Shown in pieces: positions 11,404-35,752 of a stretch of 35,752 nucleotides of DNA. This DNA comes from Paraglomus brasilianum (lineage: Eukaryota). The position numbers and the translations under genes are program-made. Within the stretch, counting starts at the first letter, position 1. Every line of letters starts with the position of its first letter. The notes under the pieces were generated by a model that saw only the letters and a list, made by a program, of their open reading frames with translations, was not told where the DNA came from and searched no databases. The stretch is from assembly GCA_910592345.1 (NCBI GenBank), contig CAJVPI010000315.1, forward strand, positions 1 through 35,752, read 5' to 3'.

Positions 11404-12477
11404 ATGTCCACTCAACCATCTGAGAAAGCTCAAGCGTTCATGATGCATATTGTCAAAATACTCAATAATGGAGCGCTTACCCTGATGATATCTCTCGGCC
11501 ATCGTACTGGTCTCTTTGATACTCTTGCGACAATCTATCCAGAATACGTCTCGTCACAAGCCCTTGCCGATAAAGCTAAACTCAATGAACGCTATGTCAG
11601 GGAATGGCTGGGAGCCCTGGTAATTGGGGATATTGTTGAGTATAATAGTGAATCAAAGACTTATAGACTTCCTCAAGAACATTCGCAGTTCCTTACAAGA
11701 GCGTCTGGGCCTCAAAACCTTGCCATCTTTGCTCAATACATTGCGATTCTTGGATCTGTCGAAAATGGCATTCTTGAATGCTTTAAAAATGGCGGTGGAT
11801 TGCAGGAAAGCGAATATCCTCGAATTCAAGAAGTCATGGCCGAAGAAAGATACCTGTCCGTTGGCTCCATATTGCATACTGTCGTTCTTCCTGGTCTTAC
11901 TGTGCTACACGACAGACTTAACAAAGGAAGCAAAGTGCTCGATGTTGGTTGTGGACGCGGTCAAGTAATTATCGATCTTGCCAAAACCTTTCCAAACAGT
12001 ACTTTCGTCGGATATGACAGATCGACCGAAGCAGTAGCTGTCGCCAATGCGGATGTCGCGTCTGCTGGTCTTACTAATATCTCCTTCCGCGTACAAGATA
12101 TTTCCAAGCTGAAAGAAGCTGGCGAATACGACGTCATCCTTGCTATGCATACTATCCACGATTTAGCTGACCCAGTGAACGCACTAAAGGGTATCCATCG
12201 TGCGTTGAAGGCAGACGGAGTATTTATAATGCAGGACGTTGGTCTTTCAAGCGATCTCGAGAAGAATAGGCCTCACCCTTTCGGTACTGCGATGTATAGT
12301 GCTAGCACCATGTGTTGTGTGCCCAGTTCTTTGGTAGACGGTGGACCGGGTTTAGGCGCTTGCTGGGGAACAGAAACTGCTTTAAAAATGTTAAAGGAAA
12401 ATGGATTCAGCAAGACCGAAGACAGCGTTGTGTTTCCACATGATCCTCTGGGCGTCTGGTTTATCAGTTGGAAATAA
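11404..12477 (+). CDS. Class I SAM-dependent methyltransferase with N-terminal winged helix (Rv2258c-like)
   Basis: Intronless 357-aa ORF. SLGHRTGLFDTL and LNERYVREWL in the N-terminal domain, SAM motif VLDVGCGRG, IHDLADP, C-terminal GLGACWG. TATAAATA near 11321. Confidence 0.9.
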   Translation: MSTQPSEKAQAFMMHIVKILNNGALTLMISLGHRTGLFDTLATIYPEYVSSQALADKAKLNERYVREWLGALVIGDIVEYNSESKTYRLPQEHSQFLTRASGPQNLAIFAQYIAILGSVENGILECFKNGGGLQESEYPRIQEVMAEERYLSVGSILHTVVLPGLTVLHDRLNKGSKVLDVGCGRGQVIIDLAKTFPNSTFVGYDRSTEAVAVANADVASAGLTNISFRVQDISKLKEAGEYDVILAMHTIHDLADPVNALKGIHRALKADGVFIMQDVGLSSDLEKNRPHPFGTAMYSASTMCCVPSSLVDGGPGLGACWGTETALKMLKENGFSKTEDSVVFPHDPLGVWFISWK

Positions 12478-13692
12478 CAGTTGCCAGTGCTGAGGATTAA
12501 AGGTGATAGAGTCTACTGATAATCTATGTTAATATAGTTGGTTAGCACATACATTTATTAAACTTAGCTATGATTAAATATAGCTTTAAAAGTTAATTAT
12601 CACTTACATGAGCCTGTGCTTGCATTGAATTCTACGAAAACGGTTCTGAAGCTTTGACTAAGATTTACGTTGAAATTAAATACCGCAAATAATGTCTCAT
12701 GTCTGTTATTCACTGAAGAAATTAGTGTCTTTATATATTACTTGAACTCGTTCTTAACGGTGCTATAAAAGATTCGATCAAAGTCGGTATTCTTGTAATC
12801 CATGTTTCAATGTAAAGGTCGGGCACGTTTGCTAAGAACAAGACTTAAAGATGTCGTGTTAACATTTTATTTGTATCAATACGGGGTGTGTCTTTCTGTC
12901 GGCTCGTAACGTAGTGGCTACATAACAAACTTCGTGAGATTAATACAAAAGAACTATCTAATGTTTACAGTCTTTTAGCATATGTTCATATATAAATATA
13001 TGTATGCGGGAGAAATAACTAAATACTATTCGCTCATTCCAGAGTTAAATCTTATTCCTTAATTTGATGCCTGGTTCTTTAGTTAATTAAGCTGGGGACT
13101 CTGAACAAGTTATTAAAGAGAATATTAATTATATTCTTTTCATACAATTAGAAGTTTCCTCTATTTACAAGAGAGTTATTGTCGTACGCATAGTTGTCGT
13201 TTTCCATACGGCAATGCATTTTGAAAGGTTCAAACAAAATGTGGTAAATTCTATTCGCCGATCTCAATTTTAGTCGTACACATGCCGATCAGGGTAAGAG
13301 TTAATGCATAGAATTAATACACCCGAGTTCTGCTTTCAGACAAAGATACGTTGTAGGGAGACAAACCCGTTTCATGCCCTGAAACCGCAAAAGCCCTTTG
13401 AATGGTGCAAAGAGTGCTATAATGCAATTGCAAAGAATGGGACATAATATTCCTTAACAATACTCTCAAATATCACGTGGTTGATAACAATACAAAACCG
13501 TGTTTTGATTGGCCTATTACAATATTTAAAAACATTGGGCACAAGGACTAATCGCTGCCTCTTGCTCTTTGCTCAGCTTGGACGAGGGGTTAGTGACAGG
13601 CTCGATCTCATATAGCTTACTGAACACGTACATATTTACTACATTTTGTCGACATGTTCTAACCAGTTCACTTTTTGTCATATCTAGCAAAA

Positions 13693-16227
13693 ATGGCAAA
13701 CAGGTACAACAACTCAACTCAAGGACAATTTAGACCTAGTATGCAACCATCCGCACAACCAAGGCCACAAGCTATCTCAACTTTACAACAACAAACACAA
13801 CAAACGCAACAGCAACAGCAACAGCAACAACAACAACTTCTTAGTTTCCAGTCGAGAGTGCTAAACCAATCGGGAACCATGGTTAATCAAAGACTTTCAA
13901 TTAATCAACCGCGGCCAAACTCCATAGTTCAACCGAACGTCAGCCACTCTATTGTACGACAACAGCAAATGATTAGCGTATCTCGTTCGCAACTCCAAAG
14001 ATCCGTTATTCAACAGAGTAGACAAGTATCGATGGTTCATCAACCGCAAAGGCAATATTTTCAGCAGCAGCAACAGGAAAGATCGGGAGAAGGATCATTT
14101 ACACAGTTTAAATTAAAATCTTCTTCTATAAAAGCAAAAAACAAGGTAAATCTTATGAATTTTATATCATCCAAGCGTGTTGATCCAAGCCTGTTCACCC
14201 CACCCGTTAAGCTTGTGCGGCGAGATCCAAGTGCGCCTCCTCGCAATCAAGCAACTGCCTCACCTGTTGAAAACGCCATAATTAACACGCCAACTCCAGG
14301 TCCATCAGCAAAAGCACCTGGTACAGATACATCCCAAATAGCACCATACGGTAATGCCACCAGAAATCGCCAAAATCTGTTCAAAAAAAAAACGAAACAA
14401 GTCCACATTGCGCCAGAAGAATCTAGGAAGCTCAGAGCAGAAGAAGAAAAACCATGGGTTCTCGAAGATTACGACGGAACAAACACTTATATTGGCGAAC
14501 TCGAAGGCGGACAACGAGCTAATTATGCCCTGTTTCTCCTCACAGACGATGGTTTCAAAGTGGTGTGCGTAGATAAATGGTATAAATTCAAACCAAAGAT
14601 CAGACATCGTACACTGACTATAGAAGAAGCCGAAGAGGCTATTGCGAAAGCAGCTAAACGTGACAATGACCGTTGGATGATGCACAAATGGAGTAAATCA
14701 GCGGAGGATGAACAGCTCGAAGCAAAAGAAGGAGGCATATTTGACCGAAAATCAACCCTGAAAACAGTCGAAACGTATGATGACGATTTATTTGGGGAAG
14801 AAGATGACGAAGAGGCACATGTTAATAAGCGGAAAGTTCGGGGTGACGTTGATGAGGAGTGGGACTTTGATGAAGTGTTTGAAGATGACGAGGAAGCTCC
14901 CGCTGAAGTAAAAGACGAAGAGGAAAAAGAGGTCGAGAGGAGACAAAAGAAATCAATGAGGAAGGGTTCGGATGATGAAGATTTGGAGGAAGAGGTACCG
15001 GAAACACTCACATCTACTGGTAAACAGATGAAGAAACTCGTGCGCTCTCTGGAGGAAAACGAAGCGTATGTTAGTGATAAAGAAGAAGATCCCTATGCTA
15101 GTAGTGTAGAAGAAGAGGATACTGAAGATGAGGAAAAATCGTCTGGTGAACTCGGTAAGACTACATCAGGTACAGCAACACAGAAACCGCCACAAATAGC
15201 ACCGAAAAGTAAGGCTGGCAGTACGACCAAGGTAGGCACTGTCCCCCAAAAAACCAGACCAACCACCGGCACAAAGCTGCCCACAGATTCGAAAAATAAA
15301 ACCGTCCCTTCCAAATCAAAACCATCAGCCATTTCTAAATCAACGGCAGATGCTAAAGGTAAACCTGTGTCTGCCGCACAAAAGACAAAGGATGGTACGA
15401 AGCTCTCTCAATCGCATAAATCAAAGTCATCCCAGCTTTCTCACCAGAAGCTATCGGCCGTGCCTCGATCTCAATCACCTGTACCCCCAATGCGCACCAA
15501 TGCGTCTGTTAACGGATCACAAGCAGTATCACCAGGATATGTTTCGTCATCGAATAGTGTTAAATCGCCGACGAATACATCTGATGTTACTGGAGCAGCG
15601 GCAGGAAAAGCAGGATTAGTAGCAAAACGCAAGCCTGCTGCTTCGACATCACAGTCTGGTACCGAAACAAGTGGTATTCCACAGAAGCGTTCTCTGCCAA
15701 AAGTCTCCACACAGCCAGCAAAGAAACTTAAATCGGATACTGGCGTTGATGTTAAGCCTGTCTCATCTTCCAAACCTAAAATTAACATTGTTATGGGACG
15801 GTCTACTTCTGAGACTTTTGCAGAATCGAGGGATGCTCCCAGGAAATTAAAAATTACTACATCAGCGTCATCAGCCTCCTCGACAGCTTCGCAAACCAAA
15901 CCGTCGTCTCAAAATAAACCACCATCTCAAAATAAACCACCATCTCAACCCAAGCCATCGTCCCAACCCAAGACGTCAACACAGACTGGACAGACTCCTC
16001 GGCCTTCTCAAGCGCCTACAACTAACTCTTCTTCTGCTGTAATTACAGAGGCGGAGGTCGTGCGTATCATTTCAAGTAGTCCGCAGATGACTACACGGCA
16101 GTTGATCAAAGAATTAAAAGATAAAATAAAGAAAGATGATCGAAACCGAGCAATTCTGAGGGAGTTGGTAGCACGAGTAGGCGTTATTAGTGGAGATGGA
16201 TTTCTTGTCTTAAAGAATAGAGAATAA
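13693..16227 (+). CDS. TFG1: TFIIF large subunit (Tfg1/RAP74)
   Basis: Uninterrupted ORF from ATG 13693. Conserved core PWVLEDYDG...GFKVVCVDKWYKFKP...TLTIEEAE, acidic region, C-terminal winged helix ITEAEVVRII...MTTRQLIKEL. Confidence 0.92.
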   Translation: MANRYNNSTQGQFRPSMQPSAQPRPQAISTLQQQTQQTQQQQQQQQQQLLSFQSRVLNQSGTMVNQRLSINQPRPNSIVQPNVSHSIVRQQQMISVSRSQLQRSVIQQSRQVSMVHQPQRQYFQQQQQERSGEGSFTQFKLKSSSIKAKNKVNLMNFISSKRVDPSLFTPPVKLVRRDPSAPPRNQATASPVENAIINTPTPGPSAKAPGTDTSQIAPYGNATRNRQNLFKKKTKQVHIAPEESRKLRAEEEKPWVLEDYDGTNTYIGELEGGQRANYALFLLTDDGFKVVCVDKWYKFKPKIRHRTLTIEEAEEAIAKAAKRDNDRWMMHKWSKSAEDEQLEAKEGGIFDRKSTLKTVETYDDDLFGEEDDEEAHVNKRKVRGDVDEEWDFDEVFEDDEEAPAEVKDEEEKEVERRQKKSMRKGSDDEDLEEEVPETLTSTGKQMKKLVRSLEENEAYVSDKEEDPYASSVEEEDTEDEEKSSGELGKTTSGTATQKPPQIAPKSKAGSTTKVGTVPQKTRPTTGTKLPTDSKNKTVPSKSKPSAISKSTADAKGKPVSAAQKTKDGTKLSQSHKSKSSQLSHQKLSAVPRSQSPVPPMRTNASVNGSQAVSPGYVSSSNSVKSPTNTSDVTGAAAGKAGLVAKRKPAASTSQSGTETSGIPQKRSLPKVSTQPAKKLKSDTGVDVKPVSSSKPKINIVMGRSTSETFAESRDAPRKLKITTSASSASSTASQTKPSSQNKPPSQNKPPSQPKPSSQPKTSTQTGQTPRPSQAPTTNSSSAVITEAEVVRIISSSPQMTTRQLIKELKDKIKKDDRNRAILRELVARVGVISGDGFLVLKNRE
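15889..15975 (+). repeat. In-frame 18-bp tandem repeat (about 5 units, SQxKP[S/P]) within TFG1
   Basis: tcgcaaaccaaaccgtcg / tctcaaaataaaccacca x2 / tctcaacccaagccatcg / tcccaacccaagacg. Confidence 0.8.
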
Positions 16228-32982: not shown

Positions 32983-33671
32983 CATAGCACCTAGACGAAA
33001 GTATCGGGACATCCTAACTTTATTAATTGCTCAAAAGTGTACATAATAATTGAGGCTAAAATTTTTATATACTATAGTCTAGCTTCTTGTAAATCCATTA
33101 TAAGACTTACTTTGTTGGCCAGCTCTTACTCGAAATACATGCTTCGACTCTTCTAGGCCTACTTTATCAAAACATCGTTAGTAATTTGGCTCCATTCCTC
33201 CTGTAATGCCGTCTCAAGTTCCCTAATATTTTTTCTAATACGCCTTTCCAGCTCTGACCATAAATGTTCAATAAGGTTCAATTATTTCTTTCAACACACC
33301 AATTTAGGCGATTTCCTAATAGTTCGGTAGAGCCAGTGCGTGGTTGGGTTGCAAGACTTTTTAAATTGTTCGTATTACTGATGCTCTAGGGAAGCCAAGA
33401 GTTTAGATATGCTCGTTTTGTAGCACCACTTTTAAAAAGTCCGATAATTTGGCCTTCGGTTAAGTCAGACATTTTCAAGTTAAAAGATTAAAATAAAAAC
33501 ACCAATCCCGTTTATTATATTGTTTATAAAAGAAATAAATATAAACACGTAAAATTGTCTCCGCATTTCATAAGAAGTTAGACTATGACATATTAATATA
33601 AAACTTTAGCATGTACACTTTAGAGCAATTGATAAAGTTATGGTGTCCGATACTTTTGTAGAATTGTTGTA
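32983..33671 (-). mobile_element. Internally deleted, decayed Tc1 transposon
   Basis: N-terminal HTH remnant MSDLTEGQIIGLFKSG...GFPRASVIRTI...QPRTG (from 33472) and C-terminal LNLIEHLWSELERRI...LQEEWSQI...PRRVEACISSKSWPTK* (about 33280-33108). Degenerate TIR core AAAGTATCGG(G)ACA near 33000 and inverted near 33645-33657; TA at 33670-71. Confidence 0.85.
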
Positions 33672-35012: not shown

Positions 35013-35519
35013 AATTTTGGGAGGGTCGGTTTACCTAATAATGGGATATATTAAAGAAGTGACGGTAAACAGGGAATAATCATAAATACTGGCTCGACCT
35101 AGACCTTTTTCTTACAAATTAGCCAAGTTTCAAGTGATTTGGTAACATTCTCACGTGTCTCGGTGAATGCGTCTATAATATCAACGGCAGCATAACTTCT
35201 TTGGAGGATGTTAATGATTCAGGCTTGGTATTCTTGCCAGTAGCGATGATAGTAGCCAAAATGTTGCTACTGATATAGCATATCAGAAGCTAACATAACT
35301 TTATTGGAAAATATCTTTGTACTACTCTGTCTGGTTATCAATTTGTTAGAATTCTGATATTGGAATCAAATCGAGAATATTGTAGATTTTATTGCAAACA
35401 TTACAAATTGTTGCATATAATGCTTATTTGTCAGATTTATTAATAGAATAGCTGTGCATTCACTATAAATATCAGTGAATTCAAATACTCATTGTAGGTA
35501 TCAGATGGATTGTAACATA

Positions 35520-35752
35520 TCAATAGTAGGCATTACTACTACTACTACTATTTCCTGCATGATCTCCGGAGAGAATCAAGGCCCCATCAAGCAATGCCCG
35601 GAGAAAGATTCCCCGAGCGCCATTTTCATTACAGTTCCACAATTCCGGCACTTGTACAAGTATAGGCCTCGTTTGGGATAATAACACGGACCCCTAATTC
35701 TTCTGCTTTAGCCACCAGGCGTTGGCGAAATTGATAGTGGCCCCAGCAGAGC
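35520..35752 (-). pseudogene. 3' end of a Fanzor/TnpB (IS607/Fanzor2-like) RuvC nuclease gene, frameshifted; 5' part beyond window
   Basis: Three consecutive frames: LCWGHYQFRQRLVAKAEELGVRVIIPNEAYT (35751-35659), YKCRNCGTVM (35656-35627) and ENGARGIFLRALLDGAL...* (35627-35520). These are colinear with the TnpB C-terminus W.HY.F...L..K....G..V....E.YTSKTC..CG...C..CG...DRD.NGARGI. Confidence 0.88.

Follow-up and report, generated by a model that had tools for sequence, protein, structure and literature searches.

A Fanzor2 transposon end in an arbuscular mycorrhizal fungus

The window, by which we mean the whole 35,752-nt stretch of DNA analysed here, very probably ends in the right end of an IS607-type transposon that resides in the Paraglomus genome and whose Fanzor2 gene no longer yields a protein. 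The minus strand from 35752 to 35502 corresponds to the final 251 nt of such an element; this is the visible part of the copy, with RuvC-I, the transposase and the left end lying beyond the window edge. Paraglomus is an arbuscular mycorrhizal fungus.

The original prediction read a TnpB/Fanzor relic in three minus-strand frames, and all three peptides are present: WGHY...NEAYT at 35745-35659, YKCRNCGTVM at 35656-35627 and ENGARGIFLRAL at 35627-35592, the third frame remaining open until a stop codon at 35522-35520 (Table 1). Profile searches agree with this reading. Segment 1 alone matches Pfam PF07282 (E 1.5e-4; 22 bits, below the 26.3 cut-off) and NCBIfam guided_TnpB (E 1.6e-5), and it retrieved 10 proteins from 13 candidates, the best with an E-value of 7.5e-11 and 87% identity over 31 residues. 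On a family profile built from 14 relatives, segments 1 and 3 score 49 and 23 bits, against 4.5 bits for the next best window position and 0.9-4.0 bits for the best position in five out of five shuffled windows. These matches are not due to chance. The RuvC-II glutamate that had been predicted is found, in its shifted position, in NEAYT and is invariant in 82 of 82 aligned proteins; as to the RuvC-III motif, its second half is there but DRD has been deleted. No further pieces of the element were detected elsewhere in the window, and CpG ratios were uninformative.

Table 1. Coordinates of the Fanzor2 remnant, its predicted RNA and the inserts of related loci (window positions unless a locus is named)
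Feature	Position	Strand	Remark
Fanzor2 coding remnant 1, end of RuvC-II region to shifted catalytic glutamate	35659..35752	-	truncated at window edge
Shifted catalytic glutamate codon	35670-35668	-	in remnant 1
Deletion 1, 52 nt relative to L008	35658..35659	-	SKT and first zinc-finger CxxC gone, frame shifted
Fanzor2 coding remnant 2, second zinc-finger CxxC	35627..35658	-	
Deletion 2, loss of 10 nt flanked by two ATG triplets	35629..35630	-	DRD with RuvC-III aspartate gone, frame shifted
Fanzor2 coding remnant 3, remaining RuvC-III and C-terminal tail to stop codon	35520..35627	-	overlaps predicted RNA
Predicted omega-RNA scaffold, 117 nt	35502..35618	-	four hairpins and a pseudoknot
Predicted scaffold hairpins	35618-35596, 35592-35581, 35578-35560, 35552-35522	-	
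Predicted scaffold pseudoknot	35588-35584 with 35508-35504	-	
Transposon right end	35502..35503	-	terminal TG here, CG in relatives
Host flank, would-be guide if the RNA were made	35487..35501	-	inferred from IS607/Fanzor2 architecture
GT-AG inserts	L001 1020-1110, L015 458-533, L021 502-577, L025 134-185		

Full-length relatives and family assignment

A metagenome scan gave 201 matches, of which 168 were confirmed as relatives and 80 kept. Full-length relatives measure about 2.2 kb; in them a transposase of MerR-resolvase type overlaps the start of Fanzor2 in another frame, and their right end corresponds to window position 35502. This overlapping TnpA, with a MerR helix-turn-helix and a serine recombinase domain, was seen in L004, L007, L014, L016, L018 and L019; its frame is open in L018, where it scores 156 bits on the IS607 transposase profile (cut-off 110), and has one stop in L004. 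Open Fanzor2 frames of 627, 639 and 596 codons occur in L004, L009 and L018, all scoring above the NCBIfam guided_TnpB cut-off and reaching 57-73 bits on IS607_TnpB, far under its cut-off of 350. The full-length relatives carry DPG at RuvC-I and the shifted glutamate six residues before the zinc finger, the canonical RuvC-II site being a proline in most rows; these features together are the signature of Fanzors (Jiang 2023, Yoon 2023). DPG is also present in the protein subfamily nearest to the window copy (P0209).

The alignment-based model of L004 (pLDDT 84, compared with only 40 for a single-sequence fold) has mimivirus Fanzor2 9B0L as its best structure match (E 4.9e-20, TM 0.64), with SpuFz1 at rank 31, and L004 also contains the N-terminal HTH_OrfB domain PF12323. 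The window copy was aligned at the DNA level with 14 relatives. A quick tree was computed from 122 loci and 92 proteins, dropping duplicates and rows that lacked the DPG-to-DxDxN core; it comprised 109 rows with that core complete and no Fanzor1 rows. In it, 20 close rows fall on one side of a branch with 74% support, beside IS607 loci from bacteria and viral contigs. The family is thus assigned to Fanzor2 rather than Fanzor1, given that 9B0L ranks first, PF12323 is present and the tree neighbours are IS607 loci, and the predicted IS607-derived type is borne out by the IS607 transposase of the relatives. Where members of the close group have names, these are fungal (Diversispora, Geosiphon and the chytrid Borealophlyctis), with no Paraglomus member named among 20 protein clusters.

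Two observations on individual relatives may be recorded here. In the gene models P0022 (Borealophlyctis) and P0046 (Geosiphon), Fanzor2 is joined with FHA and HMG-box domains or with an ICMT-type membrane domain, and these fusions may be annotation artefacts. The flanks of L004 (1-160 and 2716-2884) contain inverted copies of another repeat, 88% identical over 106 nt.

Residence in a fungal genome

The element sits in eukaryotic DNA. The TFIIF-alpha region of the window shares 98% identity with a protein of Paraglomus occultum, the next nine named matches reaching at most 57% (the second being Ambispora at 57%), and a unique contig crosses the border between host DNA and the end of the element without a mismatch. 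That a bacterial TnpB, from an endosymbiont or a contaminant, was joined to fungal DNA is extremely improbable, even if the C-terminal motif is common to bacterial IS607 TnpBs. Besides the contig, the fungal names in the close group and a putative GT-AG intron in the nearest subfamily (see below) argue against it, as does protein identity, since 21 loci from prokaryotic genomes show only 26-67% in their best segment (33-53% among full-length matches), whereas the nearest metagenome proteins reach 74-100%.

Other parts of the window have features of their own. An uninterrupted 383-codon frame (11326-12477, plus strand), possibly of bacterial origin, combines an Rv2258c-like winged helix with a methyltransferase domain amid intron-rich genes. 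A non-coding element at 33007-33648, likely a decayed non-autonomous DNA transposon, has 43-nt inverted arms (86% complementary) with very high depth at both arms, and its sibling contigs extend into ends that we take to be CACTA-like. Two MITE-like structures were also noted: a 202-nt element at 7592-7793 that has internal repeats and inverted ends of 26 nt (96%), with a copy of one end at 423-459 next to a palindrome of 50 nt (362-411), and a near-perfect hairpin at 1325-1429 with arms of about 41 nt and a 24-nt loop.

Transposon ends and crossover dinucleotide

Right ends were compared in 19 close loci with 18 distinct flanks. The terminal triplet is CCG in 16 of the 18, CTG in one and CCA in one; the window element reads CTG at 35502, and contig ends diverge at 35504 in two of four runs. 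We infer that the CTG and CCA exceptions are the transitions expected of methyl-CpG decay. The left end was recognisable in three of eight loci examined, and all three start with CCG after an A-rich stretch. L004, L007 and L018 lack terminal inverted repeats and have short direct repeats at both ends, of GCTTA type and partly 10 nt apart in L004 and L007, and no target duplication beyond the shared CCG was seen in these three loci. Direct repeats at the ends are likewise known in IS607 (PMC6188088, PMC4058570). The occurrence of 18 distinct right flanks with one and the same end suggests IS607 transposition in a eukaryote, a question left open by Gilbert and Cordaux (2013), for which this fungal family offers a test case.

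The ends do not carry the GG dinucleotide seen in the relatives from bacteria and viral contigs: CG is found at 16 of 18 right ends and at all three recognisable left ends. The crossover in this fungal family thus probably takes place at CG, and the predicted target and TAM of the family is CCG. GG targets are required by CboIStron (PMC10690162), and a 2026 review states that IS607 integrates strictly at GG (PMC13565253), a statement that the CG ends contradict. Other dinucleotides were observed in further IS607-type elements, L035 and L042 ending in CG and L051 and L052 in AG, so that GG looks typical of IS607 rather than defining; L041 and L043, also of IS607 type, begin with CCG, and L053 is a further such element with a CG or AG dinucleotide at its terminus. 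Among 120 loci returned by a scan of viral contigs with the 14-base right end, none resembled the element.

An intron predicted in the nearest subfamily

At one Fanzor2 site, AG|G is interrupted by an AT-rich GT-AG insert in 5 of 14 loci (L001, L008, where it is partial, L015, L021 and L025), and the insert is absent from the other nine. The four complete inserts measure 91, 76, 76 and 52 nt; none is a multiple of three and they break the frame, and removing the one in L001 yields an open frame of 651 codons. L014, 95-99% identical to L001, has no insert and represents either a spliced RNA or an intron-less copy. We consider the insert a putative intron, with splicing predicted from these sequences; introns are known in Fanzors in general. 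Since the loci closest to the window include L008, L015 and L021, the window copy likely derives from the intron-bearing subfamily, an assignment qualified by L001, which shows that 5' and 3' halves can differ in history.

The predicted omega-RNA scaffold

The bases that hold the coding remnant double as the right end of the transposon and as a complete predicted omega-RNA scaffold, a point that the first reading had missed. Across 18 sequences the scaffold model has 33 pairs, with 99.1% of 562 cells paired and changes on both sides in 9 of the 33 pairs; none of 500 shuffles scored as high. As the structure was drawn from the same sequences these pairing counts are inflated, and the related rows are not independent, so that they count as support and not as proof. 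The pseudoknot does not vary in the fungal rows, but the five LLDGA codons in which it lies are themselves invariant; only one codon is used at 6 of the 15 invariant residues that begin with NGARG, compared with 3 of the 67 that precede it (p 0.0009, 9 loci). In a wider set with right ends set by flank divergence, 23 of 26 loci show complete pairing of the pseudoknot, involving seven different 5-mers, the window row being matched separately from this count, and the pairing across the 26 loci fixes the terminal dinucleotide. Covariation therefore points to a structured right-end RNA in which a pseudoknot adjoins a variable guide, as in OMEGA systems. A pseudoknot is needed in ISXfa1 and predicted in Fanzor2 (Yoon 2023). 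Rfam gave no match in the window at gathering score, and the guide flank has no match elsewhere in the window (12 nt, 0-1 mismatches).

By analogy with characterised IS607 elements, the serine transposase would both cut out and insert an intact copy by way of a two-base crossover, likely at CG. Fanzor2 would load an RNA spanning the 3' end of its gene, the right end and some 15 bases of the flank, and would cut empty donor sites behind the TAM, predicted to be CCG; repair of the cut site would then copy the element back.

Decay of the window copy

The window copy was called dead in the original prediction, and two deletions relative to L008, of 52 and 10 nt, account for this. L008 is the closest locus, with 84 of 94 nt identical in segment 1 (89% DNA identity). 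The first deletion follows the NEAYT codons, with one base common to both sides of the junction, and the second takes out DRD. Its R and D show no variation among the aligned proteins (82 of 82). A complete C4 zinc finger and the RuvC-III aspartate in one open frame, intact in L004, L009 and L018, are thus broken here. Since both deletions shift the frame and together remove the first CxxC and DRD, the copy cannot make a nuclease and, to judge from its sequence, encodes none.

The deletions could themselves be an assembly artefact, the last 220 bases being a mosaic of a high-copy repeat and the true copy perhaps more complete. Unique contigs end at 35533 in X1 and X4, with only short pieces beyond, some of which retain the 10-nt and 52-nt pieces, and none of the 32 contig pieces listed (there are 281 further pieces) spans both deletions. 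In the best-matching sample, contigs include sibling copies that keep both deleted pieces, with no whole gene there, and several internally deleted variants. As expected of a repeat, read depth in X1 is 1151-2211 for the element and 38-99 for the adjoining flank; in X4 the corresponding figures are 2530-14204 and 15. Such depths do not equal copy number. We nevertheless regard an artefact as unlikely: the second deletion lies between repeated ATG triplets, as is typical of repair deletions, and other copies (L026, L077, P0005-P0010) have small deletions of their own. The family assignment is the same either way.

The window copy has lost none of the four helices and keeps the pseudoknot; at two helix positions it differs in ways that preserve pairing (A-U to G-U and G-U to G-C). 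These features would suit a protein-dead guide donor, transcribed into an omega-RNA that is loaded in trans by the Fanzor2 of an intact copy, and there is a precedent in the Spizellomyces ghost loci, whose omega-RNAs function with SpuFz1 (PMC10432273). Such a role appears doubtful, because decay does not generally spare the RNA: sibling variants lack segments of the scaffold (joints 35582-35693 and 35536-35598), and the right end is lost in L025, L058 and L077. The terminal CG of the window copy is moreover mutated. Most likely the copy is ordinary, inert debris, in which small deletions killed the protein after insertion, a C-to-T change in the terminal CG likely left the element immobile, and the scaffold survives because the deletions happen to fall upstream of it.

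Comparison with known systems

Fanzor2 is widespread in fungi (Saito 2023, PMC10432273) and IS607-Fanzor2 elements have been described since Bao and Jurka (2013). Although the prediction spoke of a hidden element, the clade has already been tabulated as Fanzor in print for three further genera of mycorrhizal fungi and is thus not a new system: the tables of Yoon 2023 label as Fanzor the proteins CAG8580437.1 of Cetraspora pellucida, RHZ87106.1 and RHZ89779.1 of Diversispora epigaea and CAG8488239.1 of Dentiscutata heterogama, which by their DPGVRTPF motif and RALLDGA tail belong to the same clade as the window family. Their Glomeromycota rows list proteins alone, without ends, RNA, crossover dinucleotide or intron, and the sole Paraglomus row belongs to a different Fanzor2 family. 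The supplements of Jiang 2023 held none of the six taxon names looked for. Our literature search, which ran outside Repbase, ISfinder, subscription papers and Saito's supplements, found nothing on Fanzor or IS607 in Glomeromycota or arbuscular mycorrhizal fungi and nothing on CG-ended IS607, and the matches listed for Fanzor in Rhizophagus were off topic by title; those sources may hold such families already. The protein clade is therefore known, whereas the CG ends and the putative subfamily intron were not found in print. A naturalised mycorrhizal IS607-Fanzor2 that switched from GG to CG (with CCG as target and TAM), depends on splicing for its nuclease in one subfamily and uses dead copies as guide donors in trans would be a far-reaching interpretation, and as a whole we give it little credence. 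For the full-length members the ends are mapped, the RNA model shows covariation and a CCG TAM is predicted, which makes them candidate compact RNA-guided nucleases.

Among solved structures, mimivirus Fanzor2 (ApmFz2, PDB 9B0L) is the best match both by sequence (E 3.8e-26) and by fold, and it resembles the fungal family in its shifted glutamate, serine transposase partner and IS607 element. Yet the two share only 22% identity, the mimivirus TAM is reportedly TGGG instead of the predicted CCG, and the mimivirus RNA lies mostly behind the stop codon, whereas that of the fungal family overlaps the last codons. Bacterial IS607 pro-Fanzors (ISXfa1 and loci of Ca. Uabimicrobium, Magnetococcus and Synergistaceae) have overlapping tnpA and tnpB and no inverted repeats, as in the fungal family, and loci of the bacterial type have the same pseudoknot at the same 36-nt offset in nine loci; they differ by GG on both sides, where the fungal family has CG and gained a putative intron in one subfamily. 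The Spizellomyces ghost loci act as RNA-only donors (PMC10432273), but they are a conserved Fanzor1 family with inverted repeats, while the window holds a single decayed copy. For NlovFz2 of Naegleria a 5'-CCG TAM has been measured, the same as predicted here, although that nuclease is reported without a clear transposase link, unlike the fungal family (PMC10432273).
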